Part shown: positions 7,674 through 31,718 of the stretch, piece by piece | Position numbering within the stretch: position 1 is the first letter of the stretch | Layout: every line of letters starts with the position of its first letter | NCBI GenBank assembly: GCA_016178505.1 | Contig: JACOTG010000048.1 | Span: 5,110-69,109, forward strand | Length of the DNA stretch: 64,000 nucleotides | Origin: Planctomycetota bacterium | GTDB lineage: Bacteria > Planctomycetota > JACOTG01 | Direction of reading: 5' to 3' | Notes under the pieces: model-generated | What the model was told of the DNA's origin: nothing | The model's input: the letters and a program-made list of their open reading frames with translations, nothing else | Databases searched by the model: none | Translations under genes and position numbers: made by a program

Positions 7674-7675
7674 GG

Positions 7676-8149: not shown

Positions 8150-8164
8150 TCGTCGAGCGCAGAG

Positions 8165-8203
8165 CGAAAAAAAGGGCGACCCGCCGCGCGGCGGGCCGCC
8201 CCT
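8165..8203 (-). terminator. rho-independent terminator downstream of the 8223..9476 gene
   Basis: On the minus strand, GGGCGGCCCGCCGCGCGGCGGGTCGCCC forms an approximately 13-bp GC-rich stem followed by TTTTTTT. Confidence 0.5.
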
Positions 8204-8222
8204 CGAACTTCGCGAGTCGCGA

Positions 8223-9865: not shown

Positions 9866-10468
9866 TCAGCGGCGCTTCGATCCGGTGCCGGCGAGGGCTT
9901 GCTTCGTCGACTTTTCGCCCCGCACGAGCTTCAGGAATTCGCGCAGGAACGCCGGGTGGTCGGGCCACGCGCGTGACGTGACGAGGTTTCGATCGACGAC
10001 GACCTCGACGTCCTTGAACGTCGCGCCGGCGCTCTCCACCTCCGGGCGGATCGCGGGATACGCGGTCATCGTTCGGCCGCGGACGACGCCCACCGCGGCG
10101 AGGATGAGCGCGGCGTGGCAGATCGCCGCGACGGGCTTTCCCTCGTCGAAGAAGTGGCGGACGATCCGCGCGAGGTTCTTGTCGTTGCGGATCCACTCGG
10201 GCGCGCGGCCGCCTGGGATCACGAGCGCGTCGAAGCGCGCGGGGTCGACGTCCGCGAACGCGACGTCGGCGGGAATGCGATAGCCGAGCTTCTCGGTGTA
10301 GGTGTCGAAGCCGGGCTCGAAGTCGTGGACGACCGACTGCAACACCTTTTTCGTCGGCGCGGCGAGCGTCACGGCGAAGCCTTCCTCGCGCAGCCGTTGG
10401 AGCGGGTACATCACCTCGAGCGCCTCGGCAGCGTCGCCGGTCACGATCAGAATCGATGGCGTGCTCAT
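9866..10468 (-). CDS. DJ-1/PfpI-family protein (class I glutamine amidotransferase-like)
   Basis: MSTPSILIVTGD...AAICHA nucleophile-elbow motif. RBS AGGAGGTG. Start chosen at Met28 of the six-frame ORF. Confidence 0.75.
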   Translation of the reverse strand: MSTPSILIVTGDAAEALEVMYPLQRLREEGFAVTLAAPTKKVLQSVVHDFEPGFDTYTEKLGYRIPADVAFADVDPARFDALVIPGGRAPEWIRNDKNLARIVRHFFDEGKPVAAICHAALILAAVGVVRGRTMTAYPAIRPEVESAGATFKDVEVVVDRNLVTSRAWPDHPAFLREFLKLVRGEKSTKQALAGTGSKRR

Positions 10469-10598
10469 GTCTCTGTCACCTCCTGCGCGGATTCTTCGCC
10501 TTGCGCACCGCGAAATCAAGCCGCCCCTCGCTGCGATGGACGCGGGCACGCGAATCGGCTACGGTCGTCGCCACTCGAAATGCAAAGGAGGATCGTCG

Positions 10599-15392: not shown

Positions 15393-16193
15393 ATGAGCCA
15401 AGCGCCGAAGTTGTCGTTGATCTTCCCGACGTTCGTCGTGCCCGACGTGCGCGCGACGGTCGCGTACTATCGCGATGCGCTCGGCTTCCGACCGTGCACC
15501 GAGGCGGGGACCCCGCCGAACCTGTTCGCGATCGTCGAGAGCGCGCCCGGACAGGGTTTTCACTTCAAGCATTCGGCGAGCGCGATCGGCCGAAAGAATC
15601 GCGCGGACGGCGGCGACCAGCTCGACGCCTACGTTCGAATCGGCCGCGGCGAGGACGTCGACCGCCTGTCCGCGGCGCTGACGAAGGGTGGCGCGGCTCG
15701 CATCGCGGCGCCGATCGACCGACCGTGGAAGATGCGCGAGCTGGAGCTCGTGGACCCGAACGGCTTCGCCCTTTGCTTCGCCGGCGATCTCGCGGGCGAG
15801 GCCACGCCGGGAACGATCGTCGTGTCCCCGCAGTTCGTCGTGCGCGACGTCGCAAAGACCGCGGCGTGGTATCAGGACGTGCTCGGGTTCCGAACGCTGG
15901 GGCAATGGGGCGAGCCGCCCGAGTACGCAATCGTTGCGCGCGACGACGTGCGCGTTCATCTCGGCCGCGCCGCCGAAGGCGCACGCATTCGCAAGAATCG
16001 CGACGCCGCCGGGATCTGGGACGCGTACGTCGAGTGTCGCGGGATGGACGCGCTTCACGACGCTTTCCGCGGACGCGGCGCGACGATCGTGCGCGGACCG
16101 CAGAACGCGGAGTACGACATGCGAGAACTCGTCGTTCGCACGCCGGACGGCCACGACCTCTGCTTCGGCGAGCCCGTCATCGCGAGCCGCTGA
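15393..16193 (+). CDS. tandem VOC (glyoxalase/bleomycin-resistance/dioxygenase-fold) domain protein
   Basis: Two copies of the F(V)VPDV..YYRDxLGF VOC module. Confidence 0.7.
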   Translation: MSQAPKLSLIFPTFVVPDVRATVAYYRDALGFRPCTEAGTPPNLFAIVESAPGQGFHFKHSASAIGRKNRADGGDQLDAYVRIGRGEDVDRLSAALTKGGAARIAAPIDRPWKMRELELVDPNGFALCFAGDLAGEATPGTIVVSPQFVVRDVAKTAAWYQDVLGFRTLGQWGEPPEYAIVARDDVRVHLGRAAEGARIRKNRDAAGIWDAYVECRGMDALHDAFRGRGATIVRGPQNAEYDMRELVVRTPDGHDLCFGEPVIASR

Positions 16194-16251
16194 CCCCTGG
16201 ATCGGTTCGCGGCGGGCGTCGTATCATGTCGGCCTCCCGGGTCCAGTTTTC

Positions 16252-17364
16252 ATGGAGGATGGCGAAGTGATTCTCACCCGCATCATCGCGACCGCTCTTT
16301 TCGTGTCGTCGCTCGGGCTCTCGCGGTTCGTTCCCGCGCCCGCCGCGTGCGACGTTTGCCACGACCAGAAAACGGTCCAATGCCCGAACTGCGAAGGCAA
16401 GGGCACGTTCCTCGACAAGTGCCCGACTTGCGAGGGCAAGGGCAAGATGCCATGCCCGATCGAGGGCTGCGGCACGACGAAGAAGGGGATGCTTCCCTGC
16501 CCGAACAAGTCATGCGTCAAGGGCATGATCCCGTGGGAGGGGGGCGACAAGGATTCCTGCCACATTTGCTCGGGACGCGGCGCCATCGATTGCCCGACGT
16601 GCAACGATTCCGAGGTCACGTGCTTCCGTTGCGCGGGCAAGCACACGGTGCAGTGGGGGTGTCTCGACTGTCGCTCGACCGGCCGGCTTCCTTGTCCGAA
16701 GTGCCAGCTTCGGGTGGACGCTTCAGACTGCGTGTGGTGTCACGGCGCCCACGATCTCACGTGTCCGCGATGCAAGGGGAGCGGAAACGAGCTCTTCGTG
16801 TGTCCGGTTTGCCGAGGGACGGACAAGGCATACTGCACCGAGTGTCTCGGACTGGGAAAGGTCGCGTGCGACACCTGCCACGGCACGGGATGGAAGCGCT
16901 ACAAGATGGTCGACAGGTCCGGAGTGAACCACGGCTCCGGCGGGCGGCGGCAATGCGACTCGTGCAACGGCACCGGGACCGAGACTTGTCCGCAGGGCAA
17001 GGATCGGCAGCTGCCGTGCTGGATCGGGAACGTGTTGAAGCGGTGGAAGCACGTCGAAGGCAAACTCGTCGCGAGCTGTCTCTGGTGCGACGGGGACAAG
17101 CACCTTCCGTGCGGAGGGTGCTACCGCGGCGAGCAGCGCGGTCTCGAGATTTCGGCTCGCGTTCTCGCCAAGGCGAATCATCACGCGGAGGCGGCGACGA
17201 TGCTGCGCGCGGCACTCGCTCGGGCGCAGGCCTATTTTGCGCGCGGCCCACAAGGCGAAGTGAAGTCGCCGGACGATCTCGCCAAGTTCAATCGCGCTCG
17301 CTCCGACACTCTGGCGCGCATCGAGGGCGAAATCGCAACCGAGGAAAAGACGCCGGCGAAATAG
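16252..17364 (+). CDS. membrane-anchored protein with multiple DnaJ-type CxxCxGxG zinc-finger motifs
   Basis: N-terminal hydrophobic segment. Eight CxxCxGxG motifs (CPNCEGKG, CPTCEGKG, CHICSGRG, CPRCKGSG, CPVCRGTD, CTECLGLG, CDTCHGTG, CDSCNGTG) plus further CxxC pairs. The start is internal to the six-frame ORF 15688..17364. Confidence 0.6.
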   Translation: MEDGEVILTRIIATALFVSSLGLSRFVPAPAACDVCHDQKTVQCPNCEGKGTFLDKCPTCEGKGKMPCPIEGCGTTKKGMLPCPNKSCVKGMIPWEGGDKDSCHICSGRGAIDCPTCNDSEVTCFRCAGKHTVQWGCLDCRSTGRLPCPKCQLRVDASDCVWCHGAHDLTCPRCKGSGNELFVCPVCRGTDKAYCTECLGLGKVACDTCHGTGWKRYKMVDRSGVNHGSGGRRQCDSCNGTGTETCPQGKDRQLPCWIGNVLKRWKHVEGKLVASCLWCDGDKHLPCGGCYRGEQRGLEISARVLAKANHHAEAATMLRAALARAQAYFARGPQGEVKSPDDLAKFNRARSDTLARIEGEIATEEKTPAK

Positions 17365-17374
17365 GCGACCGCTT

Positions 17375-17938
17375 TCAGCGCAGCGATTCGAGCGCGGTCC
17401 ATCCTGTTTTCGAAACGTGCTTCGACGCGTCGAGTGTCTGCGCCGCGGCGCGCAGCGCCTCCCCGTCGCGCGCAACGACGAGCGCGAGCGGCACGCCGTC
17501 CCGATCCTCGGTCCAGACTGAACCCGAGAGCTTGCCGGACGCCTCGGCCCAGCGCGGTGCGAGGAGTTTGTCCGCGGCGACGATCGCATTCGTCGCGAGA
17601 ACGAGATCGTCCGCGGAGAGGACCGAGCCCGGACGCGTCACCAGCTCGTCCACGCTCGTTGCGTCGTGTGAGACGCGCGAGTACGGCTCGTACGGACCGT
17701 CGCCGTCGTCGCGGTTCGACGTCCACGTCGGGCGCTTTTCGCGATACACGCGAAGCCAGTCGGGGTCGGATGCGCCCGGGCCGAGCAGCCAATCGCGGTA
17801 TCCCGAGCCGTGGTGCGCCCTGCCCGCCGCCGCATCGCGCGCATGGACGAGCGTCGCGGGATAGTTCGCGAAGACCTCGAACGACGGCGCGTCGGAGGAC
17901 GCAGCGAGTGAGGCGAGAAGGGTCAACGCGGGAATCAT
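17375..17938 (-). CDS. small secreted hypothetical protein
   Basis: Start at Met43 of the ORF (MIPALTLLASLAASSDAP signal peptide). No domain recognised. Confidence 0.4.
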   Translation of the reverse strand: MIPALTLLASLAASSDAPSFEVFANYPATLVHARDAAAGRAHHGSGYRDWLLGPGASDPDWLRVYREKRPTWTSNRDDGDGPYEPYSRVSHDATSVDELVTRPGSVLSADDLVLATNAIVAADKLLAPRWAEASGKLSGSVWTEDRDGVPLALVVARDGEALRAAAQTLDASKHVSKTGWTALESLR

Positions 17939-17981
17939 GGCCGATCCGTACGACGCGAGGAGCGGAAGCGTTGGCCGAGTC

Positions 17982-19757
17982 TCACTTCTTCGCGGCCTCT
18001 TCCACGATGCGCGGAAGGAGGTTCTCCTCGCCGAGCTTCCAGCGCTGAACCTCCTTGCCGGCAACGAAGATCATCGGGATCGCCGTGAGGCCGAGCTTCT
18101 TCGCCGCCGCCACGTCGTCGCCGATCGAGTTCAGGAGCTCTGGAAGCTGCATGGCCTCCCACAAGACGTCGCCCTCGATGCCGATGGCCGTCGCCTCGGC
18201 CGAGACCGTGGCCTTGTTGAAGTCTCCTTGGTGCGTCATCAGCCAGTCGTGCATTTTCCAGAACGCCTCGATGCCGCCGAGCGCGGCGCTGGCCTCGGCC
18301 GCGCGCGCGGCGAGGCACGCGAGCGGGTGGAGAGTTTTCTCGGCCGTCCCGTTGCACTGTTGATCGACGGGGTAGTGGCGGAACGCGTACCTCACGTCCG
18401 AGCGCACCTTCACCATCGTGCGACACGTGCGATCGACTTCGGCCGTGTACGGCTCCTGGTAGTCGCCGAAGACGACGATGCTCACGGGCGCCGAGTCAGG
18501 GCCGAGCGTTCGGGGGAACGCGTCGGGCGGCATCGCCACGGTCGGTGCCTCGCGCCAGTCGCCGAGGCTCTTCTCGAGCGCCAACGCCGGTCGATCGGAC
18601 TCGGCCGTGGTCGCCGCCGGGCGCTTCGCCTCGAGCGTGGCGATCGTTCGCAGGACGGCGTCGGGCGCGTTCCAGCCGCGAAGCTCCACGCCGTTCACGA
18701 AGATCATCGGCGTCGTCGAGATCCCGAGCTTCATCGCCTCCGCAATGTCGGCCTGCACGTTTGCGAGCGTCTGCGGACCGTGAATGGCGGCGACGACTCG
18801 CGTGCGATCCAGCCCCAACTCCGCGAGCCCGCGGTCCAGTTCCTCGTTCGTGAACGAGCCGCCGCGTGCGAACAACCACTCGTGCATCTTCCAGAAGCCC
18901 GCCGATCCGCCGACCTGACCCGCGGCCTCGGCAGCGCGCGCGGCCCAACAAGCGTTCGCGTGCATCGTGGGCGCGTTCGGGTTGCACTCGGCGCACATGG
19001 GGAAGTGCTTCACGGAGAGCGACACGGAATCGTGCGTCTTCATCGCGGTGCGCAGCTCGCCCTCGATGCGCTTGCAGTCGGGGCACTGGTAGTCGGTGAA
19101 GACGACGATGCGGATCGCGGCGGGATCGGGTCCCAAGCGGTAGCGTCCGGTGAAGGTGCCCGTGAACTTTCCCATTTCCGACATCGACGCGGCGAGGTCG
19201 CGCTCGGCGCGCGCGCGCACGGCGCCGCGGGTGGAATGCTCCGCGAACGCGAGAAGTCCGGTCATCAGCGCGAAGGCCGCGACGCCGGTCGCGACTTGCC
19301 ATTTCGAAGGCGCGGCCGCCGGACGAGCGAGGCGTCCCCACTCGACGATTGCCCAAAAGACGACGCTTGCGACGTGAACCGCGAGGCACCACGGACAGAG
19401 GAGTTGCTCGCCGATCATCGCCCCGACGAACGTCGTCGACCCGAAGGCGCCGAGCCGCGAAAGCCAGGCGAGGCTCGGGCCCGGCGTGCCGCGCGCCGCG
19501 CTCCACGCCGCCGCAAGGCCCGCGAACCAGGCGACACCGAGGAACGAGACGGGCCAATCGACGAGCGGGACCTTGCCCCACGTGCTCGCCGCGAGCTTCG
19601 CGCACGCGCTCTCAGGCCCGCAGCCCGGAACGGCCATCGCGCCCAAGTGTCCGAGCGCCAGCACGAGCGCGCTTCCGCCCGCGACGACGAGCGCCACGAG
19701 CCCGAATCCAAAGCGGAGCGATGCCGACTGCGGTGGAGCGGGAACCGACTTCGTCAT
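17982..19757 (-). CDS. vitamin K epoxide reductase (VKOR) domain fused to two DsbA-like thioredoxin domains
   Basis: N-terminal VKOR-like transmembrane region with CxxC (CPWC). Two DsbA-like modules (DYQCPDC; FGDYQEP...QCNG). 591 aa. Confidence 0.75.
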   Translation of the reverse strand: MTKSVPAPPQSASLRFGFGLVALVVAGGSALVLALGHLGAMAVPGCGPESACAKLAASTWGKVPLVDWPVSFLGVAWFAGLAAAWSAARGTPGPSLAWLSRLGAFGSTTFVGAMIGEQLLCPWCLAVHVASVVFWAIVEWGRLARPAAAPSKWQVATGVAAFALMTGLLAFAEHSTRGAVRARAERDLAASMSEMGKFTGTFTGRYRLGPDPAAIRIVVFTDYQCPDCKRIEGELRTAMKTHDSVSLSVKHFPMCAECNPNAPTMHANACWAARAAEAAGQVGGSAGFWKMHEWLFARGGSFTNEELDRGLAELGLDRTRVVAAIHGPQTLANVQADIAEAMKLGISTTPMIFVNGVELRGWNAPDAVLRTIATLEAKRPAATTAESDRPALALEKSLGDWREAPTVAMPPDAFPRTLGPDSAPVSIVVFGDYQEPYTAEVDRTCRTMVKVRSDVRYAFRHYPVDQQCNGTAEKTLHPLACLAARAAEASAALGGIEAFWKMHDWLMTHQGDFNKATVSAEATAIGIEGDVLWEAMQLPELLNSIGDDVAAAKKLGLTAIPMIFVAGKEVQRWKLGEENLLPRIVEEAAKK

Positions 19758-20050
19758 TCGCGCGACGAGCCTCCGACAACGGTGATCGACAAAGGAGAAT
19801 CGGCGCGCGAGTGTATCCGAATCCGCGAGTCGTCGCCGAGAGATCGCTAACGGTTATCGTGGTGCCAACTGGACCCACGGGACAGAATGTTCGAACCGTC
19901 GCTGCTCGTGAGTGGGGCGGTCGGGGTCGCTGACGCTATGGACCGCCGCATGCTTGAATGCAAGTCCAGGTTCATGGTCAGCCCGGATAGAATCCGCTCC
20001 ATTCAGATTGTGGGACGCACCCATCCCAACGATGTGGAGGCTGCTGACCG

Positions 20051-22243
20051 GTGACCCTCACCCGAAGGCGCATGGCGTCGGCGATTCTGGCCGGACTCGT
20101 CTTACTGGGTACGGGCATGTTGATTTGGCGCATGATGCGCTCGGAAACGCCTGGGCCATCAAATGGCGCGACTCCTGCTCTGAGTGCGACGCGGACTGAG
20201 ACGCGATCTTCGACGACTACTGGGACTGAACGCGAACTCTCGCGATCGAGTGTCGCAGAACTCCAACGTTCTCCGTCGACGGCGAATCGCTTGGGCGCCT
20301 TGCGGGGTCGGGTGATTGGGCGCGCCGGAGAGCCGGTTTCGAGCGCAACGGTCGAGGTGCGGAAAAACTCGGCGAGCGACTCGTCCATATTGCGGCCAGA
20401 CGTGTCCGCGCCGCCCCTACGAAGTGTGGCGACGGATCGAAATGGAGAATTCAGCTTCGACCTTCCGGCTGGACGGTCGTTCGATCTTCGTGTGATGGCT
20501 GAGGGCTTTGCGCCGATCGTCCGGACCGACCGTTACGCGGGAGAGAACGTCCTCGTCGAAGTCGGACGCGGGGGAACGATCCGCGGAAACGTGAGCCGAT
20601 CGACCGACGGCACTCCGGTCGCGAATGCAATCGTTCGGCTGTCCGGCGGTGGCGCTGACATCGCGAGTCGCAGCGAGACGGACCCAGGAGGCCGCTACGA
20701 GATCGAAGTGGGCGATCCCGGAACGTACTGGTTGAGTGTCTATCCATCGGCGGATGGTGCAGTCGAATCACGAAGGATCGATCTCGAGGAAGGCGAGACT
20801 GTGCGCCAAGACATCGAGGTCGATCCCGGTGTCACCTTCTCGGGACGCGTGACCGATGCCCGAAGCCATGAGCCGATCATCGGGGCTCACGTGACGGATC
20901 GCGGTATCGGCGAGAGATTCGCGGAGACGAACTCGGACGGATACTTCATGCTCGACGGAATCAACCCAGCTCCTCAACGAGGGATTTTCATTCGCGCGAG
21001 CGCCCCGGATCATGCGACCGCGGAGCTCCATGTCGATTCGGCCACTGCGGCGGCGGCACCGCTCGAGTTCGCGCTCCAACGTGGCGGCGACGCACGCGGG
21101 GTCGTCATCGATGCGATGGGCAGACCCGCCTCGGACGTCGAGGTTTCGATACTCGTCATCGACCCTCGCTACATGATGCCGCGTCAAACCACACCGGCGA
21201 TTCTCAGCCGTGCCGACGGCGCCTTCGAGTTTCGAGAGCTGCGTCCCGATGCACGTCATCTCCTCATTGCACGGAAGGATGGTTTCGCGACCCGGACAGC
21301 CGTACTCGATTCGTTTGGCGAACATGCCGGCGTGGCCGATCTTGGCGTCTTTGCGCTCGATCCCCCCGCATCGATTGTCGGACGCGTCACGCGCGAAACG
21401 GGCGAGCCGGTTTCCGACGTGTTCGTGAAGATCGAGTCGTGCGACCGAAGCCGGGGATCGTCGGAAACGCCTCTCGATGCGATCGCGCTTTCGAGCTCGC
21501 GCTCACGGCGCACGGACACGACGGGCCGTTTCTGCATCACGGATTTGGCGGCAGGGCGATATCGGGTGAGTGCCCAGATTCAGGGGCGGCGCAACGACGC
21601 GAAGCGCGACATCGAATTGAAGGTCGGACAAGCGGTCGACGGAATCGATCTCGTCCTCGAGCAAGGACCCTCGATCAGCGGAAGGGTCGTCGATTCGTTT
21701 GGAAAGGGCGTTTCGTTCGTACGCATCGAAGCGTTCGCCGATTCCCTCCCGAAGTCGGCCAAGACGCGGCTCTCGACCGAATCCGACGGTTCCTTCCACA
21801 TCGAGGGGCTCGCCGAAGGAACGTACACCGTCACTGCGCAACGTGTCGAACTCAGCGGTAATCGAGGTGAGTCTCCATTCGGTGTAGGGATTGCCCGTGG
21901 AGTCGCCACCGGATCCGAGGCGCTTCAAATCGAACTTCGCCGTGCGCGACCGACGTCAGGCATTCTCCTCGATCACGAAGATCAGCCCGTCGCCGGCCTC
22001 ACGATTCTCGTATCCGATCCGATAGATCGATTCAGTGATGTCACGGTCACGGATGCCGAGGGTCGATTTTCGATCGTCATGCCGGAACCGGCGCAGTTGA
22101 ACTTCGACGTCGCGACCACGAGCGGATTTACACTCGACGTCTCGGGCCCCGGTACGGTCGAGGCTGCGGTGGCGGAGCGTGCCGTCACAGGAATCCAGTC
22201 GGGAGTGAGCGACTTGGTTTTTCGTCTAGTGCCTAAACGCTAG
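20051..22243 (+). CDS. membrane-anchored protein with tandem carboxypeptidase-regulatory-like (CarbopepD_reg) domains
   Basis: N-terminal transmembrane helix, then repeated G(R)V.D..G.PV beta-sandwich modules (GRVIGRAGEPVSSATV, ISGRVVDSFGKGVSFVRI, and others). Confidence 0.6.
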   Translation: MTLTRRRMASAILAGLVLLGTGMLIWRMMRSETPGPSNGATPALSATRTETRSSTTTGTERELSRSSVAELQRSPSTANRLGALRGRVIGRAGEPVSSATVEVRKNSASDSSILRPDVSAPPLRSVATDRNGEFSFDLPAGRSFDLRVMAEGFAPIVRTDRYAGENVLVEVGRGGTIRGNVSRSTDGTPVANAIVRLSGGGADIASRSETDPGGRYEIEVGDPGTYWLSVYPSADGAVESRRIDLEEGETVRQDIEVDPGVTFSGRVTDARSHEPIIGAHVTDRGIGERFAETNSDGYFMLDGINPAPQRGIFIRASAPDHATAELHVDSATAAAAPLEFALQRGGDARGVVIDAMGRPASDVEVSILVIDPRYMMPRQTTPAILSRADGAFEFRELRPDARHLLIARKDGFATRTAVLDSFGEHAGVADLGVFALDPPASIVGRVTRETGEPVSDVFVKIESCDRSRGSSETPLDAIALSSSRSRRTDTTGRFCITDLAAGRYRVSAQIQGRRNDAKRDIELKVGQAVDGIDLVLEQGPSISGRVVDSFGKGVSFVRIEAFADSLPKSAKTRLSTESDGSFHIEGLAEGTYTVTAQRVELSGNRGESPFGVGIARGVATGSEALQIELRRARPTSGILLDHEDQPVAGLTILVSDPIDRFSDVTVTDAEGRFSIVMPEPAQLNFDVATTSGFTLDVSGPGTVEAAVAERAVTGIQSGVSDLVFRLVPKR

Positions 22244-22427
22244 CCGTTCTCTCGCCGGGGCAACCCTTACGAACTCGCCACACCGCCGCACGCCAGTGCT
22301 CGATCGTGATCGCAAGGGCGAGTTGTCGCGCTCGTCGGGATCGAGGGTGCGGTCCGACGGTGTTCGCCCACGTCTTCAGGCTGTCGTAGTCAGCCTCTGC
22401 CGTCGAATCCGAACGTCTCGTTATCGG

Positions 22428-24302
22428 TCAGAAACTGTTGCCGGTGTTCCGGCTCGTGTTCGAAGACGAGCCGTAGTGGAAGCGGATGATCGCCGGCGGA
22501 TGGCGTCGCATGAGTTCGAGCTGCTCCGGCGTGAGCACGTGGTGGAACTCGCGCTCCATGCGCGCTTGAAGTACGAAGAAGTCCTCGTAGAGCCGCGCTT
22601 GTTCTGTGGGGCTGAGCGCCCGCGGGTTGGCGCCGTACTGTCCGTAGTCGCGCAGGAGTCGCTCGGCCTCGGTCGTGTAGCTTGCGGCGACGGACCGCAC
22701 CGCGCCCTGCTGGCTCTCGTCGAACGAGTAGGCCCAGTCCCATTGTTGGTAGACGTTTTCGGCGTACTTCCCACTCGCGACGTCGTCGAGCATCCCGATG
22801 TCGCCGATCGATTCGTCGCCTCGCATCAGTCGCCCGCTCACGTTCTGGATTGCGTCCCATTGCGCGCGCTGAGAATCGGTGAGCATCCCGTTCACGGAGT
22901 TCGTGATGTCGGAGATCAACTGCATCCGCGCGCGGTACAGCTCGACCGGGAGCGCCGTCGACGGATCGAGCTCCGACAGCCGGCCGGCGAGGAGAGATCG
23001 CGTCGTCTTGTCCAGCTCGGCGAGCTGACTCTCGGTGAGACCGAGGGACTTGCTGAACATGGCGTGGACGTAGTCGGGGAGAATCTTCGGATCGAAGAAA
23101 GGAACGGGCGACGCGGTCTTCACTTGCGCGACGAGCTTCATGTACTCGCTCAGCATGGCGGCCATCTTGGCTTGTTGCTCGGGAGTGAGCTTGTTCTCGT
23201 CCTTCATCGCGATCGCGAGGAGATCGACGTTGTTGGCGAGTAGCTCGGCGAACTTCGTCCAATCGATGGCATCGGGACCGACGAGCTTCGCTTTTCCGTC
23301 GCCGGCCTTCACCGCGGAGTTCGGTGAGGGCGCGAGTTCCGCGCTCGACGCGAGACGAGCGCGATCGGCCGACGCGAGCGCGTCCTGCGCGGTGCGCGCT
23401 TCGGCTTCCTTCTTGTGCAGCGCGTCGATGGTGCGCGCGTAGTCGGCCTTCAGTTTCTCGAACTCGGCCTTGCTGACGCTCGCAGCATCCGAGTGGGTCG
23501 CGTTCTTCTCGAGGGACGGGGCCGCGCCGTCGGCTCGGAGAATCGTACGGCCGGCCCACAGCCCCGCGCCGAGCGACACGATGCCGAGAATCAAAGCGCC
23601 GCCGATGATCTGCTTCGTCATGAGGATTCCTCCTAGGGTCAAACCGGTGCTGATCGTGGCCGTCGACGTCGCGTTCGCGGCGATCGTCATCAGCGATGCC
23701 GAGAGCTTCGCGGGTACGTGAAGCGCCGCCGACGAGCGCATGAGGCTCTCGACGTTCGGGACGACCGAGAGATAGCCCGCCGTCGCAAGTCCTCGCTTGA
23801 GCAGTTTCAGAGCTTTCTGAATTCGCGTCTGGGCGGTCGTGCGCGAGATCGCCAACGCCTCCGCGACCTCGAACTGCGACAGGCCTTGGTAGTAGTGCAA
23901 GAGGATCAGCGATCGCGACGCTTCCGGAAGTTTCGCGATCTCCCCCTCCACGACGGCCTCGAGTTCGCGATGCTCCAGCCGCTCTTTTTCCTCGAACTCG
24001 TCGCGCTTCATGGGCGCCTCGCTCTCCCTCTGCCGTCGCAGCTTGGAGTCTCGGATGAAGTTCCGGAGCACGCTCGTGGCCACTCGGTAGATCCACGGCT
24101 TCAGCGCGCGACGCGAGTCGTAGCGGTGAAAGTTGCGCAGCACCGTGATGAAGATTTCTTGGGTTGCGTCCGCGGCGTCGGCCTCGTTGCCGAGCATGCG
24201 GTACGCGAGGTTGTAGAGCGGACGCTGCCAGTCGAGGACGACTTGCGCGAGCGCCTCGCCGTTCCGGGATGGTTCGCTCGGTTCGAGCACGGCCGTTTCC
24301 AT
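22428..24302 (-). CDS. ECF (sigma-70 family) sigma factor fused to a transmembrane helix and a roughly 370-aa extracytoplasmic domain
   Basis: Region 2 (DATQEIFITVLRNFHRYD...KPWIYRVATSV) and region 4 (ILLHYYQGLSQFEVAEALAISRTTAQTRIQKAL). The frame continues through a transmembrane helix (IIGGALILGIVSLGAGLWAG) into a long Ala/Glu-rich domain. No stop codon at the junction, checked on the DNA. Confidence 0.7.
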   Translation of the reverse strand: METAVLEPSEPSRNGEALAQVVLDWQRPLYNLAYRMLGNEADAADATQEIFITVLRNFHRYDSRRALKPWIYRVATSVLRNFIRDSKLRRQRESEAPMKRDEFEEKERLEHRELEAVVEGEIAKLPEASRSLILLHYYQGLSQFEVAEALAISRTTAQTRIQKALKLLKRGLATAGYLSVVPNVESLMRSSAALHVPAKLSASLMTIAANATSTATISTGLTLGGILMTKQIIGGALILGIVSLGAGLWAGRTILRADGAAPSLEKNATHSDAASVSKAEFEKLKADYARTIDALHKKEAEARTAQDALASADRARLASSAELAPSPNSAVKAGDGKAKLVGPDAIDWTKFAELLANNVDLLAIAMKDENKLTPEQQAKMAAMLSEYMKLVAQVKTASPVPFFDPKILPDYVHAMFSKSLGLTESQLAELDKTTRSLLAGRLSELDPSTALPVELYRARMQLISDITNSVNGMLTDSQRAQWDAIQNVSGRLMRGDESIGDIGMLDDVASGKYAENVYQQWDWAYSFDESQQGAVRSVAASYTTEAERLLRDYGQYGANPRALSPTEQARLYEDFFVLQARMEREFHHVLTPEQLELMRRHPPAIIRFHYGSSSNTSRNTGNSF

Positions 24303-24534
24303 TGCTTCGTCACCTGTGTCAGACCCATGGATTACACGCTTCCGGCATGAGCGGACGGGAAATTCTGCGATGCGGTCGAAGATTTCGCGCGAAACATCCG
24401 CCGCGCTCTCGACCGAGCGAGATGAATTCCAAACCCCTCGGGCGCCATCACGTCTAAGGACCGCGGCGCACGCACGATGCCGACGCTGGTGAGCGCGCGG
24501 GGATGGCGACGGGAGACTTCACAGGAGACTCGAG

Positions 24535-26043
24535 ATGACGTCACGACTCATGCGACACGCACGGCTGTGCGTCCTGATCTTCGCGGCCGCCGCCCGCGCT
24601 TCGGCGGGAGGTCCGGCACTCGACCTCGACAACCGCTCCGTCGTCGACCACCTCGGAGGTCGCGGGCGGGCGTTCACGATGACTTCCGCCATTCTCGGCG
24701 AGACGCGGCGCATCGACGTCGCCACGCCGGAGTCGTTCGACGTCACCGGCCCCAATCGTCGCTATCCGGTGATCCTGGTGTTCGACGGCGAGTACAACTT
24801 CGCGCACACCACCGCGACGGCCCAGTATCTCGCCGAGGCCGGCCAAATCCCCGAGGCGCTCGTCGTCGCCGTCGAGAACATCGGCGGAAACGAGGAGCGA
24901 GTGCGCGACCTCACTCCGCCGGGACTTTCCGTGAGCGGCAGCAGCCTGAACGAAGGCGGCGATCGCTTTCTGGACTTCCTCGAGAAGGAGCTGCTCCCGG
25001 CGCTTGCGACGCAGTTTCGGGCAGGCCCGCCCAACGTGCTCATCGGTCATTCGTCCGGCGGGATCCTCGTGACGTACGCTGCGGCAACGCGCACGACGGT
25101 GTTTCCGTTCATCGTGTCGATCGACGCGCCGACGCACTTGCAAGACGGCTGGCTCGTGGCGCAGCTCGTTGCGAAGGCGCAGAAGCCCCCGGCGAAACCG
25201 CTGCGGTATGCGTCGCTCGAGTCACGCTTCGGTTGGTCGGACAAGGACTGGGCCGCGCTGCAATCGGCGGCGCCGGCGTCTTGGAAACTGCACCGCGAGA
25301 AACTCGCTCACGAAACCCACAACTCGATGCCGCTCCTCGCGACGTACCTCGGCCTGCGCGAAGTGTTCGCGGACTACTCGATGCTGGCGGCCCGCGATTC
25401 ACCGACGAGCGCGGCGCTCGAGCACTACCGCAAGTTCAACGAGTCGCTCGGCGTCACCGTCGTGCCGCCGCGCCCGTTGCTCGGTCGCGTGATCGAAGAC
25501 TTGCTGATCGAAGGCAACGCGAAGGTGGCTCAGTCCGCACTCGATTCGCTGATCGCCGGGTACGGCGACACTCCGAACGCTGCGACGATCCGCGCGCAAA
25601 TCGCGGAAGCGGCCAAGCTGCCGCCGCTGACGGAGACCGTCGAGGACTTGCTGAGCGCTCCGAAGCCCGACCCGAAAGCGATGGCTCCGTTCCTCGGAGA
25701 ATGGAACGGCACGATCCGTCACCGCGGCAGCATTCCCGAGCCCTTGCGCGTGCGTCTGGAAGTGCAGGGCGGCGTGGTCACGGGCGTGCTCACTCATTTC
25801 CCGGAACCGGGCGTGGAGCTGCCGATGCCGCTCCAATACGTCAAGATCGTGGAGGGCGGCTTGCACTTCGGCTTCATGAACGGGATGCGCCCGCGCGGCA
25901 TGATCGTTTACGAGGGCATTCTCCACGATGGCAAGCTCGAAGGCGAAGCGCCGATTCGCGGCGTGCGCTTCGAGCGTCCCCCCGGCGCGCCCGACACGCA
26001 CTTCTCGCTCCAGCTCACCAAGCCGGCGACGCGGAAGGTGTGA
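24535..26043 (+). CDS. secreted alpha/beta-hydrolase, putative esterase family
   Basis: Signal peptide, GHSSGG nucleophile elbow, about 500 aa. Confidence 0.65.
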   Translation: MTSRLMRHARLCVLIFAAAARASAGGPALDLDNRSVVDHLGGRGRAFTMTSAILGETRRIDVATPESFDVTGPNRRYPVILVFDGEYNFAHTTATAQYLAEAGQIPEALVVAVENIGGNEERVRDLTPPGLSVSGSSLNEGGDRFLDFLEKELLPALATQFRAGPPNVLIGHSSGGILVTYAAATRTTVFPFIVSIDAPTHLQDGWLVAQLVAKAQKPPAKPLRYASLESRFGWSDKDWAALQSAAPASWKLHREKLAHETHNSMPLLATYLGLREVFADYSMLAARDSPTSAALEHYRKFNESLGVTVVPPRPLLGRVIEDLLIEGNAKVAQSALDSLIAGYGDTPNAATIRAQIAEAAKLPPLTETVEDLLSAPKPDPKAMAPFLGEWNGTIRHRGSIPEPLRVRLEVQGGVVTGVLTHFPEPGVELPMPLQYVKIVEGGLHFGFMNGMRPRGMIVYEGILHDGKLEGEAPIRGVRFERPPGAPDTHFSLQLTKPATRKV

Positions 26044-26067
26044 CCGCGAACGCTCCCGGCGTCGGGT

Positions 26068-29000
26068 CTAGCGTGGAGTGCGCGTCGGCAGCGTGACGCG
26101 CACCTCGTGGTCGCGAGGCCCGACGATCTCGACGGGGATGTCGATGTCGGGATACTGGAGCACCGTGATGTGGAGCCTGTAGCTTCCGACAGGAAGCGCG
26201 TTCCTCAATATCGTGCGACCTCGGAAGAGAGAGCCCGCCCACTGAGAGCGCGACGAGCCGGCTTCGAAGATCTGCACGTTGCTCATCAGCGAATTCTGGG
26301 ACGCATCCAATAGCTGCTGCTCAAAGGCCACTTCACGTGTTGCAAACCGTTCGTCGTCGACGACGAGAACGATGCGGCCCGCCGGCTTGATGGGAAACGT
26401 CCGATCGATTCGGTCGCCGTCGGTGACGGTGAAGCGAGCGCCGGCGACTTGGAAGCTCCCGCGCGAATCTTCGCGAGCGTTCAGCTCGAGGACGTACTCG
26501 CCGGCCGGAAGGTGCATGAATTCGAATCGCCCGCGGGCGTCCGTGTGCGCGCTGCCTCGCGACCGGCGAGTCACGGCGTCGAGCGCTTCCACCTCGATGT
26601 CGGAGAGATCGACGACGTCGCCTGCGTCGAGCCTTCCGACGAGAGTTGCCGGCGGCGACAGCTCGATGCGAATCCCCGTGACGTCCTCGCCCGCACGAAC
26701 GGTCAACGGCCGCTTCGTCACCTCGTGCCCCGTCGATTCGGTGATTTCCATCGTGTAGTCGCCGGGCAGGACGTTCTCGAATTCGAAGTGCCACGCCATG
26801 GTGCGCGGGATCAAGGACCGGCCGTTGGCATGCTGCATCCACATCGAGTATCGCGTGACGCGCTTTCCATCGCGATCGAACACTGCGCCTTCGACGCGCT
26901 GGCCGGCGACGTGGCCGCCGGGAGGCGCGGACAGTTGGAGTTGGACGGGCTCGTCGCCGGCCGTGATGACCGACGCCTGCAGCCGGTACGGATTCACGAA
27001 GTTCCACGCTCGCACGCGGTAGGGGCCTTCCGGCAGATCCTCGAAGCGGAACCGGCCGGCTTCGTTCGTTTCTCGTGTCCCGAGGATTCCCGGGTCGAAG
27101 GGATTGGCCGTTCGATCGAGCGCGGTGTCGGCGTCGGCGCGCACCACGCGAACCTCTGCGCGCGCGGGCCGTCCGTCGGAGTCGACGACTCGTCCTTCGA
27201 CGACGTGCGCGGCTTGGAGCGTGACGCCGAGCGCGACGCCTTCGTCCGGATAGCAATCCAGCGTGACGCTGCTCTTCGCGAAACCGGGCGCTTCGATCTC
27301 CAGCATTCGCGGAAAATCAGTGGGACGGAAGCAGCGATCGAGACGGGCCATCCCTTTTTCGTCCGTTCGATCGCCCGGGTACGTGAGGAGGTATTGGACG
27401 AGCGCGCCGAACACCGGAGACCCACGATCGTCGGCGACGTGGATCTCGAAGCGGCTCGATCGATGAACGAGGCGAATCGTCACGTCCGCAGCATCCGGCG
27501 AATCGGCGACCTCGATCCCGCCTGACGTTCCGTCGTCGGTTCCGCTCCACACCCAGAAGGCCCCGCCGGTGTGAAAACGCGGGATCGCCGGAAACTCGAA
27601 ATGACCGTTCGCGTCGGCCGAGGTCTCCGCGCTCTGTTCGACTTGTCGAGTGAGCGGCGGGAGGTGAGCGCCGACCTCGATTCCGAGAAGCGAGTGAAGG
27701 TCGTAGCTCACGCCCGCTCCGGCGACGGGCCGATCTTCATCGTCGACGACCACGCCGCGCACGACGCGCGTTCGAACGAGACGCACTTCTTCGACGGGCG
27801 ACGACGACGTGTTCCAGGCGAGGCCGAACCGGCCGGACGCCCGAGCGACGATGCACAGCGGCTCCTCTCGAAAGGGCGCGCCGAGGACGACTTCGCCGTC
27901 CTCGTTCGTCGTCGCCTCGCCGAGACTCACGGCTCCGACGTATCCCGATTCGCGACCCGTGCCGACGCTCACCGTGCGTTCGCGTCCCGACCAAGCGGCG
28001 ACGTTCGCGTCCTTCACGGGGAGTTCGGTTTCCGCATCGAGAACGCGGACGCGCAATCCCTCTCCCGCGACGAGGTCGATCTCACGAGGATGCTCCCGAG
28101 TCGACGCGCCGGCGCGGAACCGGTCGTCCATGTCCAGCTTCAACGGTTGGTATCCGTCGCGCGAAATCCGAAGCTCGGTCGCGTCCCAGTATCTGCCGTT
28201 CCCCGGATCAGGAGTGGAGAAGCGGCCCTGCGAATCCGATTGCGTAAGCCCGCGCGAGACGACTCCGCCTCGCAGCACGAACGTCTCGGCGGATGCGCCG
28301 GCGAGCGGTTCGCCCGTGTCGCTGTCCCAGATGATGAAATACATCGTGCGCGCCGCCTCGAGTCGCAGCTCGACGTCGCGCGGTCTCGAGGCGACCACGA
28401 TGCGCGAGTCTTGTCGGTAGCCGTCGGCGTCGGCGACGACTCGCCGCACTCGCTCGCTGCCGGGGACCCGAATCTCGAACTCGCCTTCTGCGCCGCTCAA
28501 TGTCGCGGGCTTGCCGTCGAGCGTTCCCATCGAATCCGCCGAGCTGATGCGGAGACGAGCGCCGGCGATGGGTCGTCCGTCTTCGTCGACGACGCGCCCG
28601 TCGATGCGCCATGCATTCGGATCGACGGAAGGGACCGAGGACGTCGCCATCGCGTCGGGCGACTCCGGCGCGGAGGCGTTCAGGGGTAGAACGGAAGCCG
28701 TCGTCGACGCGGCGCCCGTCACCGCGGCGATGGTCGTCGCGCGCTCGTCGCGGCTCCCGGCGAAGCGCCACAGCGCCAAGACGGCGAGCAGCAGCAACGC
28801 CGCGATCCACACAACCTTCGCCTTCATCGCCATCACGCCTCCGACCACTGCGCCCACGCCCGTTCGCTTCGACTCGAGCCCGACGAGCGGCAAGAGCGCG
28901 AGCCGCCATTCGCGCGCGTCGTCGCCATGTCGCCGGAGCAACTCGACTCTCAGCATCGCGAGCCCGCGCTTCACTCGCGTGCGCACGGTCTCGACCGGCG

Positions 29001-29454
29001 CGCCGACGCGCTCGGCTATCTCTCGCGGCGGCAGGTCCTCGAAGTAGCGAAGCACGACCGCGGTGCGGTACGGCTCATCGAGGCTCATGACCGCAGTCAG
29101 CACACGGCTTTGCTCCGCGATCCGCGCGATGACGCCGTCCGTCGAAGGCTGTGCCTCTGGGCGAGCGGCGGCTTTCTCGCGCTGGCTGCGGTGCTTGTCG
29201 CTGCGGACGAACCGCCGCGCGACGTTCCGGGCCACGCCGCGGATCCACGCTCGCGAGCTTGCTTTCCGCGAATGCGGCTCGCGCAGCGCGACGAGCATCG
29301 TTTCCTGAACGACGTCGTCGGCGACGGTCTCGTCGAAAACGAGGCTTCTCGCCAGCCGTCGCACGCCATCGACGTGCGCGAGCAGAAAAGTCGGATCGAT
29401 CCGCGAAGCGTCGTCGCTCATGTCGTTCACGGAGAAGTGCCAGCGGCTCGGCAA
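26068..29454 (-). CDS. ECF sigma factor fused to a transmembrane helix and a large extracytoplasmic array of carboxypeptidase-regulatory-like domains
   Basis: N-terminal sigma regions 2 and 4 (ADDVVQETMLVAL...; REIAERVGAPVETVRTRVKRGLAMLR). Transmembrane helix (VVWIAALLLLAVLALW). More than six CarbopepD_reg-like repeats (IDGRVVDEDGRPIAGARLRI, VEGRVVDSDGRPARAEVRVV, and others). 1128 aa. Confidence 0.7.
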   Translation of the reverse strand: MPSRWHFSVNDMSDDASRIDPTFLLAHVDGVRRLARSLVFDETVADDVVQETMLVALREPHSRKASSRAWIRGVARNVARRFVRSDKHRSQREKAAARPEAQPSTDGVIARIAEQSRVLTAVMSLDEPYRTAVVLRYFEDLPPREIAERVGAPVETVRTRVKRGLAMLRVELLRRHGDDAREWRLALLPLVGLESKRTGVGAVVGGVMAMKAKVVWIAALLLLAVLALWRFAGSRDERATTIAAVTGAASTTASVLPLNASAPESPDAMATSSVPSVDPNAWRIDGRVVDEDGRPIAGARLRISSADSMGTLDGKPATLSGAEGEFEIRVPGSERVRRVVADADGYRQDSRIVVASRPRDVELRLEAARTMYFIIWDSDTGEPLAGASAETFVLRGGVVSRGLTQSDSQGRFSTPDPGNGRYWDATELRISRDGYQPLKLDMDDRFRAGASTREHPREIDLVAGEGLRVRVLDAETELPVKDANVAAWSGRERTVSVGTGRESGYVGAVSLGEATTNEDGEVVLGAPFREEPLCIVARASGRFGLAWNTSSSPVEEVRLVRTRVVRGVVVDDEDRPVAGAGVSYDLHSLLGIEVGAHLPPLTRQVEQSAETSADANGHFEFPAIPRFHTGGAFWVWSGTDDGTSGGIEVADSPDAADVTIRLVHRSSRFEIHVADDRGSPVFGALVQYLLTYPGDRTDEKGMARLDRCFRPTDFPRMLEIEAPGFAKSSVTLDCYPDEGVALGVTLQAAHVVEGRVVDSDGRPARAEVRVVRADADTALDRTANPFDPGILGTRETNEAGRFRFEDLPEGPYRVRAWNFVNPYRLQASVITAGDEPVQLQLSAPPGGHVAGQRVEGAVFDRDGKRVTRYSMWMQHANGRSLIPRTMAWHFEFENVLPGDYTMEITESTGHEVTKRPLTVRAGEDVTGIRIELSPPATLVGRLDAGDVVDLSDIEVEALDAVTRRSRGSAHTDARGRFEFMHLPAGEYVLELNAREDSRGSFQVAGARFTVTDGDRIDRTFPIKPAGRIVLVVDDERFATREVAFEQQLLDASQNSLMSNVQIFEAGSSRSQWAGSLFRGRTILRNALPVGSYRLHITVLQYPDIDIPVEIVGPRDHEVRVTLPTRTPR

Positions 29455-29647
29455 TTCGGTTCAAACAAACCGATTCAAGAGTACGCGACCGACGAACGGC
29501 GGGTCAGTAGCCCGCTGCTGGTTGAACGTCCTCCGATCGGAGCACGTCAGGTCCTTGCTGACCTTTCGCGATGGGCGGGCGAGTTCGCTCGTCGATCGGG
29601 GTCGAGTCCCGAAGGGTCTGGTGGCATCCGTCGCGAGTGCGGGTTCG

Positions 29648-31417
29648 TCACTGGATCGCGACCACGACCGCGTTGGTGACGCTGAACCCGATCGAGTTCG
29701 CCGCGCCGGCGTCTTCGATGGCGCCCTGGATCGTGAACATGCGGGCTCGTCCCGCGTTCGAACGTCGAAGGGTCCACGGCGCGGGCCCGGGCCCGACGAC
29801 GTCGATGATGCCACGACTCGCCGCGGGAGGAACGCCGCCGCGAAGGCAGGCGGCGGGTTGCGGACCGGCGCCGAGCTGGATTGGCGTCGGCGCGATCATG
29901 CAGCCGAGCGATTGGCCGCGCGCAACGAAGTCCACGGGATCCATGGGCGCCCCTCGCCAGATCCAGAGCACGTATCGTGCGGGCGTCGGTCCGGTGGGAG
30001 CCGCCGCGAGGGACACCTCGATGGGGGAGGCGGTGTCGACGGGAACGAACCGAGGATTGCCGTTCACGACGAGAACATTGACGACAGGGCCCTGCCCCGC
30101 GTTCACCGTTCCCTGGGCGCAGGACATGCGATCGTGCACGAACACATCCATGGAACCGTTCGTGTCGTTCATCACGAGGTTCGTTGCGTAGCTGATGAAC
30201 GCGACCTGCCGCCCATCGCCCGAGAGGGCGGGGAAGTAGGAATCGCCGTTCGCTTCGGTGCCTGCGGAGTCGATGCTCACGCGCTCCGTTGTCCCTGCTC
30301 GCAAGTCGCGCACGAAGACGTCTTGCAGCCCGTTGGTGTCGCCTGGGACGAGGTTCGTCGCTGTGCTCAAGAACGCCACGTACCGCCCGTCGCGGGAGAG
30401 CGACGGCGCCACGCTCACGCCGTCGCAGGTATCGCCCGACGGCGTCGTACTCACGAGAGACGTTTCACCGGTCGCCATGTCGTGCAAGAAGACGTCGGCG
30501 AGCTCGTTCGAATCGGCCGCCGTCAAGTTCGTGGCGCTGCTCGCGAACGCCACGAACCGACCGTTTGCGGAAACCGACAGCCGGTCGTTGCCGCTCGTGC
30601 CGTTCGCCTGGGCGCCGGTCGAGCTGACGCTCACGCGCGTCGTCGCGAGAATGGCGCGGTCGTAGAGAAACACGTCGTTCACGCCGTTGGTATCTCCGGC
30701 GACGAGATTGCCGGCGAGATGTTGAAACGCCACGAAGCGTCCGTCTGCCGAGATCGCGAGGAAGTTGGCGACGCCGAAGCGATCCGGCTGCGCTCCGAAG
30801 CGTCCGATGCTGACTCGCGACGTCTCGTCGGCGTCGAGGTCGCGCACGAACACGTCCGCGAATCCGTCCGTGTCCCCGACGACGAGGTTCGTTGCGGCGC
30901 TCGTGAACGCCACGAAGCGCCCGTCCGCCGAAATTGCAGCGAGGTCGCTTCGTCCGTCCGCGTCGGCGCCGTTCACTCCGACGCTGACGCAAGAGGTCTC
31001 ACCGCTGGCTCGGTCGTGGACGAACACGTCGACCACGCCGTTGCCGTCGCCGGACACGAGGTTCGACGCGTCGCTCGAGAAGGTCACGTAACGACCGTCA
31101 TCCGAAGTCGAGGCGAAGAAACTATCGCCGTTTCCCTGCCCTCCGGTCGAGTCCACGCTGACGCGCTCGGTCTGCCCCGTGAGTCGGTCGCGAAGGAACA
31201 CGTCCATGAAACCGTTCGTGTCTCCGGGGACCAGGTTCTGCGCTGCACTATGGAAGGTGACGAAGCGTCCATTGGCGGAGATCGAGGGTGCGGTGCTGAA
31301 TGCGTCGCCCTGCAGCTCCGACGCGCTGACGCTGACGCGGGTCGTGGCTTGCTGGGCGAAAGCCCAATCGACGAGGGTGAGCGTCGCAACGACGCAGATG
31401 ACTCTTGTGAAGCACAT
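29648..31417 (-). CDS. secreted beta-propeller repeat protein (TolB/PD40-like repeats)
   Basis: Start at Met64 (MCFTRVICVVATLTLVDWAFAQQ signal peptide). At least eight repeats of SxDGRFVAFxSxAxNLVxGDTNGxxDVFVxDR. Confidence 0.6.
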   Translation of the reverse strand: MCFTRVICVVATLTLVDWAFAQQATTRVSVSASELQGDAFSTAPSISANGRFVTFHSAAQNLVPGDTNGFMDVFLRDRLTGQTERVSVDSTGGQGNGDSFFASTSDDGRYVTFSSDASNLVSGDGNGVVDVFVHDRASGETSCVSVGVNGADADGRSDLAAISADGRFVAFTSAATNLVVGDTDGFADVFVRDLDADETSRVSIGRFGAQPDRFGVANFLAISADGRFVAFQHLAGNLVAGDTNGVNDVFLYDRAILATTRVSVSSTGAQANGTSGNDRLSVSANGRFVAFASSATNLTAADSNELADVFLHDMATGETSLVSTTPSGDTCDGVSVAPSLSRDGRYVAFLSTATNLVPGDTNGLQDVFVRDLRAGTTERVSIDSAGTEANGDSYFPALSGDGRQVAFISYATNLVMNDTNGSMDVFVHDRMSCAQGTVNAGQGPVVNVLVVNGNPRFVPVDTASPIEVSLAAAPTGPTPARYVLWIWRGAPMDPVDFVARGQSLGCMIAPTPIQLGAGPQPAACLRGGVPPAASRGIIDVVGPGPAPWTLRRSNAGRARMFTIQGAIEDAGAANSIGFSVTNAVVVAIQ

Positions 31418-31718
31418 CACGGTGTCTCCTCGCGCGCCTCGAGTGATGAAGCCTGCAGGCGGGCATACGACGCGGGCACGCGCGGCAAAAAACCAGGAGA
31501 GGCCTGACGAAAGCTGCCCATCGTCCCCGAGTGAGCAAATCACAGTCCTCGGCGCGACCGAGAATCCGCCCGTCGGCAGCACGGGATTATGAGGCAGATG
31601 GCTCATCAGGTGCGCCGAACACGGATCCTCGTCGGGAGAATCGACCTCGGTCTTCCGGTGGGGTTGAACGGATTACACGCCCCTTTGCCCTGCGACAGGA
31701 ACCGTGCTGGTGCGTCAG

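Follow-up and report, generated by a model that had tools for sequence, protein, structure and literature searches.

A sigma-less, membrane-anchored CarboxypepD_reg repeat protein of a Planctomycetota bacterium and its relatives fused to ECF sigma factors

A stretch of 64,000 nucleotides from a Planctomycetota bacterium (contig JACOTG010000048.1 of assembly GCA_016178505.1), called the window in the following, carries at 20051..22243 of the plus strand a gene for a membrane-anchored protein of 730 amino acids (aa) with seven CarboxypepD_reg repeats and no sigma domain. This focal protein belongs to a family in which the same module, a transmembrane (TM) helix followed by seven repeats, exists in two forms, either alone or behind a sigma factor of one group of the extracytoplasmic function (ECF) type. 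In a tree of the module both forms are intermingled, and they stand together in a tandem cluster of a sister metagenome-assembled genome (MAG). The focal protein is probably a bitopic rod of the cell envelope and a divergent stand-alone member of this family, which would be made and unmade by gain and loss of a sigma2-sigma4 cassette. A clean natural pair results, in which one extracytoplasmic module occurs with and without an ECF sigma factor in what two near-identical MAGs indicate to be one organism. It makes the published cassette-insertion origin of sigma factor extensions in Planctomycetes concrete for one large family, and it could help to find out if extensions of this kind regulate the sigma factor or ride as passengers. 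Domain shuffling is thus supported and was already described in principle; otherwise the focal gene is an ordinary gene for an uncharacterised envelope repeat protein.

The focal gene, its parts and the elements at its start are:
20051..22243 (+), focal gene, sigma-less, TM helix and seven CarboxypepD_reg repeats, 730 aa; GTG start, stop at 22241-22243 (list of open reading frames, translation)
20036..20040 (+), Shine-Dalgarno-like GGAGG, 10 nt before the GTG at 20051 (read from the sequence)
20072..20128 (+), TM signal-anchor, residues 8-26 (MASAILAGLVLLGTGMLIW), with RRR before it (hydropathy; AlphaFold2 helix 2-29; covered by the N-terminal end of the family profile)
20141..20287 (+), disordered stalk rich in Ser, Thr and Pro, residues 31-79 (predicted local distance difference test, pLDDT, <50; 41% Ser+Thr)
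20291..20293 (+), TTG start of the NCBI record, judged too short (MBI1849650.1 / P0001 starts MGALRGRV)
20297..20578 (+), repeat 1, residues 83-176 (repeat profile 42.1 bits)
20579..20824 (+), repeat 2, residues 177-258 (repeat profile 51.3 bits)
20834..21079 (+), repeat 3, residues 262-343 (repeat profile 34.3 bits)
21095..21349 (+), repeat 4, residues 349-433, without the family signature GAYVAAVA...DW (repeat profile 33.2 bits)
21371..21661 (+), repeat 5, residues 441-537, with the only two cysteines, C464 and C495 (repeat profile 59.2 bits)
21671..21940 (+), repeat 6, residues 541-630 (repeat profile 49.2 bits)
21956..22228 (+), repeat 7, residues 636-726 (repeat profile 25.3 bits)

The Pfam family PF13620 (CarboxypepD_reg) matches the focal protein in seven stretches with 216.1 bits (E=5.8e-65; gathering score 32.3), and the weaker Pfam matches belong to related prealbumin-like families. 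With a hidden Markov model (HMM) of the repeat built in this analysis, the seven repeats tile residues 83-726. Only one segment of the protein is hydrophobic, residues 8-26, with a Kyte-Doolittle mean of 1.99 over 19 residues. An AlphaFold2 model, for which 41 family sequences served as input, reached a pLDDT of 82.2 and a predicted template modelling score of 0.73 and consists of a helix (2-29), a disordered segment (31-79) and seven beta-sandwiches. Repetition at the DNA level was not found within the focal gene, so the repeats are old and a recent amplification was rejected. No sigma family of Pfam or NCBIfam matches the focal protein, Sigma70 region 2 and region 4, which define the ECF class (group 4), are absent from it, and an HMM of the sigma group of the family does not match the gene. 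Furthermore, the chain before the TM helix is only about 7 residues long, and none of the anti-sigma families of Pfam matches, be it a class I anti-sigma domain (ASD), a zinc-binding one (ZAS) or a FecR-like one. Pfam gave no match to Plug, TonB_dep_Rec or Peptidase_M14 either. TIGR04056 scores 27.3 bits at a cut-off of 368, which places the protein outside SusC/RagA, and NF052345 (anammox S-layer glycoprotein, Kustd1514 family) scores 29.5 bits at a cut-off of 1400; NCBIfam holds no model specific to the focal protein.

In the public database the gene starts at the TTG at 20291 (MBI1849650.1, 650 aa, beginning MGALRGRV), by which the TM helix is excluded, and the record of the sister MAG (MBI3843478.1) likewise starts downstream of the anchor. 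The GTG at 20051, or at least the ATG at 20072, appears preferable, because GGAGG precedes the GTG by 10 nt, because an independent gene call (P0238) has 730 aa, and because a family profile from which the focal protein had been left out matches it over nearly its full length, in one piece, with 541 bits (positions 4-733 of 734, residues 6-728). The N-termini of the relatives speak for the longer start as well, since a short basic N-terminus followed by a hydrophobic segment also opens the sigma-less relatives listed. The public start is therefore flagged as an annotation error: it removes the anchor and would misplace a predicted envelope protein in the cytoplasm.

The family was delimited by an exhaustive HMMER search over 1.84 billion representatives, which yielded at least 640 cluster representatives at E<=1e-30 for the focal module, and the best 150 matches were classified. 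Apart from P0001, the focal product itself, these are 149 proteins in four classes. Sigma-less proteins of 703-787 aa (typically ~730 aa) make up 57 and are collinear with the focal protein end to end. In ~60 longer proteins of 847-986 aa (typically ~930 aa) the focal query aligns from about residue 200 onward, and a sigma-domain query matches 59 out of 60 in this class. The remainder comprises 19 giant repeat proteins and 13 shorter ones (512-679 aa), probably fragments. Most family members among the best 150 share one matched stretch with the focal protein, which is ~30% identical to both classes; its top matches are all sigma-less (P0065, P0066 and P0068, 34-35% identity, 284-297 bits). A word-indexed protein search with the family alignment missed the class of ~730 aa, and a metagenome locus scan with a narrower alignment gave 8 loci.

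The order of the repeats supports the relationship as well. The family has a fixed order of seven repeats with position-specific signatures. In P0002, a sigma fusion of 931 aa and the best non-self match of the first search, everything behind the sigma domain, TM helix and C-terminus included, runs collinear to the focal protein (150 bits), and each focal repeat pairs best with the repeat of the same number in 6 of 7 cases (P ~5e-5). For the sigma-less P0003 this holds for 5 of 7; a stop codon lies just upstream of the P0003 start, hence no sigma domain is fused in that frame. Judged by profile and repeat position, the focal protein is a member of the TM plus seven-repeat family.

The genes next to the focal gene are:
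17982..19757 (-), VKOR-DsbA fusion, divergent from the focal gene
22428..24302 (-), sigma-624, 624 aa, ECF sigma factor with TM helix and ~380 aa without Pfam match (Sigma70_r2/r4 of Pfam, translation)
24535..26043 (+), esterase
26068..29454 (-), ECF sigma factor with TM helix and CarboxypepD_reg array, 1128 aa (Pfam; HMM of the sigma group)
29648..31606 (-), PD40 beta-propeller protein

Compared with the fused class, 26068..29454 reaches a median of 99 bits (maximum 138) with its sigma domain, and sigma-624 reaches 28.6 bits with its own. The median identity to the class is 40% for 26068..29454, equal to the mean within the class, and 24% for the other sigma factor in the window; an HMM built from the fused class scores 26068..29454 at 218.8 bits. 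On these scores, its sigma domain is assigned to the ECF group which elsewhere is fused to modules like the focal one. The window thus holds both halves of a typical fusion in separate genes: the sigma factor of the group is, by sequence, joined to a different array, and the usual module of the group is encoded without a sigma factor.

Judged from the two near-identical MAGs, both forms are present in the same organism. The sister MAG (GCA_016200105.1) contains a locus (L098, JACQFJ010000008.1) 99.7% identical to window positions 16077-32243, and the family members P0071 and P0076 are tied to both MAGs by their accession series. On a second contig of the sister MAG (L097, JACQFJ010000025.1) five family genes are arranged in tandem on one strand between 10001 and 22199, namely three sigma-less genes (732, 742 and 649 aa) followed by two sigma-fused ones (935 and 1041 aa); a further CarboxypepD_reg gene of 926 aa stands at the start of this locus. 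The modules of the cluster are 37-46% identical to one another, except that of the 1041-aa gene (~20%), and 26-30% identical to the focal protein. In sigma domain plus juxtamembrane segment, the 1041-aa fusion is 48% identical to 26068..29454; their ectodomains are unrelated. Window positions 16077-32243 and L098 differ by 50 single-nucleotide polymorphisms (SNPs) and one indel. The 38 genic SNPs fall in sigma-624 (13), the esterase gene (5) and the gene of the 1128-aa fusion (20), the VKOR-DsbA, focal and PD40 genes have none, and 12 SNPs lie outside the six scored genes. The genic SNPs between both MAGs are confined to one block of ~7 kb.

An earlier note on this DNA had described the focal product as a sigma-less, TM-anchored CarboxypepD_reg repeat protein, and this description is borne out by Pfam, hydropathy, the repeat HMM and AlphaFold2. 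The note had also ascribed to it the TM anchor and repeat architecture of the sensor part of 26068..29454. The alignment of the two arrays revealed generic domain similarity only: the BLASTP score was 38.9 bits and the phmmer score 22 bits, lower than for any of the 36 non-self proteins which the focal query retrieved from the database, and in repeat-by-repeat Smith-Waterman comparisons 1 of 7 pairs lies on the diagonal, without positional correspondence. The family profile aligns the TM helix, the linker and the first repeats of 26068..29454 in register, albeit weakly (76 bits), and the remainder in fragments. The two arrays would be at best distant relatives of a common domain type, and direct paralogy was rejected. 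The term "sigma-less paralogue" therefore holds at the level of the family, where the module is collinear in sigma-less and fused proteins, but not for this partner in the window. Similarly, the focal gene is indeed convergent with an ECF fusion gene, as had been stated, with the stops of the focal gene and sigma-624 184 bp apart tail to tail, but that fusion has no CarboxypepD_reg repeats. The sigma-624 gene is regarded as context of the focal gene.

The note had also suggested a check of the three-gene neighbourhood in related genomes, and conservation was not confirmed. The focal gene together with the ECF fusion genes was found again only in L098 of the same species. Full-length orthologues of sigma-624 (56-32% identity) were located in the contexts L002 to L009, and a CarboxypepD_reg array is within reach only in L002, one loosely similar case: a TM-anchored, sigma-less array of 828 aa is convergent at the end of a sigma-624/PD40 pair, whose PD40 protein is a 51% identical orthologue of the one in the window. 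This array was rejected as an orthologue of the focal protein, because it scores 44 bits, has no repeat diagonal (1 of 7) and shows a native G+C content at third codon positions (GC3) of 0.85 versus 0.67.

The history of the two forms was approached with a neighbour-joining tree of the module from 122 sequences, in which the fused and sigma-less states interleave. Fitch parsimony requires 22 changes of state, compared with a mean of 40.8 and a minimum of 30 in shuffles. Several reciprocal nearest neighbours are pairs of one sigma-less and one fused protein with 48-64% identity, although one member of the 64% pair looks N-terminally truncated. Among the fused members, sigma identity and module identity are moderately correlated (r = 0.39). 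According to a published model for Planctomycetes (Pinto and da Fonseca 2020, PMC7671368), duplicated minimal ECF cassettes insert into coding or non-coding DNA, and the gene that follows is captured as a C-terminal extension. The interleaving of both forms fits such insertions before pre-existing genes. The proposal of the earlier note that domain shuffling produced the fusions is supported by the collinear module, the same ECF group and the mixed tandem cluster, and it agrees with this published model. Upstream of the focal gene a sigma relic was not detected with the HMM of the sigma group in three frames of 19400-20130, including 650 bases upstream.

In several respects the family resembles the Planctomycete ECF extensions described there (PMC7671368): one ECF group is joined to differing extensions, the sigma domain is conserved and the extensions poorly so (48% sigma identity between 26068..29454 and the 1041-aa fusion of L097 versus generic identity of the ectodomains), and homologues of an extension exist as separate genes without sigma domain, of which the focal gene is one. 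The difference is that the focal gene is the sigma-less counterpart and that the extension forms a large family with both forms about equal in number and interleaved. The word "carboxypeptidase" does not occur in the main text of that publication, so the module is not named there.

Taken together, the focal protein would expose ~7 residues to the cytoplasm, cross the inner membrane with one signal-anchor helix and carry on its extracytoplasmic side a Ser/Thr-rich stalk of ~50 residues and seven transthyretin-like (CarboxypepD_reg) beta-sandwiches. About half of the family carries this module as the C-terminal extracytoplasmic extension of a sigma factor from one particular ECF group. Sigma-less and fused forms would be siblings, the sigma2-sigma4 cassette being gained or lost at the 5' end and the genes spread by tandem duplication. 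Since it has no cytoplasmic domain, the focal protein cannot itself hold or release a sigma factor. Most likely it acts in the envelope without enzymatic activity, as a rod for binding or spacing, and would by itself take the role that the module has on the outer side of the membrane in the fused proteins.

Membrane-tethered fusions of ECF sigma and anti-sigma factors are known from IutY (ECF243), SCO4117 (ECF52), ECF48 and ECF53 and are subject to regulated proteolysis (PMC8999054). Like these, the fused relatives of the focal protein combine sigma factor, TM helix and extracytoplasmic domain in a single polypeptide. However, only ~35-40 residues separate sigma4 from the TM helix in these relatives, a recognisable anti-sigma or zinc-finger domain is missing there, and their proteolytic release is presumed. 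The focal protein differs from the tethered sigma factors in that it has neither a sigma nor a cytoplasmic domain, and it thus falls outside that class as well as outside the anti-sigma factors.

NOMO is a single-pass membrane protein with a string of transthyretin-like beta-sandwiches outside the cytoplasm. Human NOMO2, a subunit of the BOS complex (PDB 9c7v), is the closest solved relative of the focal protein by sequence (E=1e-27, 99.9 bits). In contrast to the focal protein, NOMO is eukaryotic, anchored at the C-terminus and built of ~12 domains, and the NOMO models of Pfam remain below cut-off on the focal protein. The two proteins are alike in domain type and general shape without being orthologues, and a fold comparison of the focal model returned generic tandem beta-sandwich chains only (TM-score <=0.15). 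The many "carboxypeptidase regulatory-like domain-containing proteins" of Planctomycetota, Myxococcota and Acidobacteriota share the Pfam domain and the database name, but they are mostly 1000-1300 aa long or giants of 1600-5200 aa, with variable repeat numbers and without positional correspondence. The N-terminal CarboxypepD_reg domain of SusC/RagA proteins and the regulatory domain of carboxypeptidase D, both weak matches, belong to the same single-domain fold family; there the domain is a single appendage, whereas plug, barrel and peptidase domains are missing from the focal protein.

Several observations weigh against the reading of the focal protein as a stand-alone envelope rod of this family. 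NCBI calls the shorter product without anchor, and the N-terminal 80 codons are a prediction; the sister MAG carries no SNP in the focal gene, hence strain variation is uninformative about them. The neighbour-joining distances are near saturation (~1.5), which leaves the number of gains and losses and their direction uncertain. Sigma-less members have an ECF sigma gene at a distance of up to 10 kb in about 4 of 7 usable contexts, and a functional link to sigma signalling may exist. The focal copy has the lowest GC3 of 21 genes in the window (0.67; mean 0.805, z = -3.2). It keeps 72 of 98 positions (73%) conserved in >=80% of the family, the lowest value of the 41 aligned members (median 89%), and it lacks the signature GAYVAAVA...DW in repeat 4, where the missed conserved positions are Y364E, D380T and W381T. 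This copy may therefore have drifted in function, been acquired horizontally or come under relaxed constraint.

Alternatively, the focal protein could be a co-receptor or decoy, which would pair with fused paralogues through the TM helix or the ectodomain, or compete with them for a ligand or the site-1 protease, and in this way set the threshold at which regulated proteolysis releases the tethered sigma factor. Its module is the same as the sensor part of the family fusions, sigma-less and fused paralogues stand in tandem on one strand in L097, and two ECF fusion genes lie less than 4 kb away in the window. The fraction of about 4 in 7 compares with ~13% for a random 20-kb window, an expectation calculated with the 1134 ECFs counted in 23 genomes of planctomycetes (PMC7671368) and an assumed, typical size of the genome. 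In addition, proteolytic release of fused sigma factors is established for IutY and ECF52 (PMC8999054). Tandem duplication explains the clustering equally well, however, and the focal copy stands apart from the paralogue cluster, is ~30% identical to its members and has an array barely related to that of the nearby fusion. The single contexts point in different directions as well. L089 and L090 contain a tandem sigma-less pair followed by a convergent ECF sigma gene, but this sigma factor is of an unrelated, stand-alone, Cys-rich type and is absent from L091, which has such a pair too; L088 contains another array with a divergent sigma-like gene ~9 kb away. No sigma gene was found near the sigma-less members of L096 and L086 (the latter covering only ~1 kb downstream), and in L099 and L100 a fused member stands without sigma-less neighbour; P0182 is such a member. 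As the focal protein also lacks a cytoplasmic domain and a shared ECF-type promoter was not found, such a role is unlikely. Mixed membrane assemblies, in which sigma-less copies would tune or gate the proteolytic release of tethered ECF sigma factors, a layer undescribed for ECF signalling, are quite unlikely.

The Cys-rich sigma factor of ~190 aa (CGTCAEHGCEDCSC in its tail) is encoded at ~10297-10870 (-) in L090 and in the same region of L089; a 1102-aa open reading frame containing it appears spurious by its GC3 profile.

ECF regulons commonly include adjacent genes, and the focal gene could accordingly be a target of one of the neighbouring ECF sigma factors, encoding an envelope protein induced by the stress that they sense. 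A promoter-like motif, TTCCnGTC-N14/15-GCGTGTAATCC, precedes sigma-624 (24328-24365 (-), ~30 nt before the start) and the PD40 gene (31670-31705 (-), ~65 nt before the start), and a similar one (CGTGTATTC) is kept in front of the orthologous sigma-624 genes of L002 and L003. The pattern points to an autoregulated ECF promoter with a putative regulon including PD40, whose gene directly follows the sigma gene in L002, and the neighbouring sigma factor probably has local targets. In L097 the fused paralogues have a different motif before them, TTCSAAC-N13-GCGGCATG. Neither motif was found upstream of the focal gene, the 8-mer GTTCGAAC occurs upstream of it at chance frequency (3 observed, 2.3 expected), and the focal gene is convergent with the sigma gene instead of co-oriented. 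A shared ECF-type promoter was therefore rejected, and membership of the focal gene in the regulon, despite its adjacency to ECF sigma genes, is rather improbable. Terminator and promoter scans gave no more matches than in shuffled sequence.

A third alternative, a foreign or degenerating copy that now has hardly any function or none in its genome, would be consistent with the low GC3, with the rank as the most divergent of the 41 aligned members, with the absent repeat-4 signature and with the lack of any relative above ~35% identity, apart from itself, among the 1.84 billion representatives. Against this, the frame of 730 codons is intact, all seven repeats are recognisable, the structure model is confident (pLDDT 82) and G+C contents at the first and second codon positions are typical of coding sequence. 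Moreover, the sequence is identical in the second MAG, whose neighbouring genes carry the 38 SNPs. Decay or recent acquisition without function is thus very unlikely, and the stand-alone envelope rod is preferred.

Some further observations concern the surroundings of the focal gene. The window has a G+C content of 60-68%, and its sequence matches a MAG labelled Planctomycetes/Planctomycetota bacterium. VKOR-DsbA proteins act in disulfide-bond formation, and the only two cysteines of the focal protein are both located in repeat 5. The conserved domain of ~380 aa in the sigma-624 protein has no Pfam match, and full-length orthologues of the protein (56-32% identity) were found only in MAGs of Planctomycetota; the family looks uncharacterised. 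At 2453-4984 (-) the window encodes a GmrSD-type restriction endonuclease with N- and C-terminal domains and DUF4268, with a GC3 of 0.73, below the window average. BlaR1-type Peptidase_M56 genes recur near sigma fusions, in the window at 5271-8126 (-), in L002 at 915-2461 and in L099 at 6488-9659, and are paired with BlaI in L002 and L099/L100. P0229 unites Peptidase_M56 and CarboxypepD_reg repeats in one protein, and membrane signal transducers of several kinds may thus share the repeat array as their outer part.

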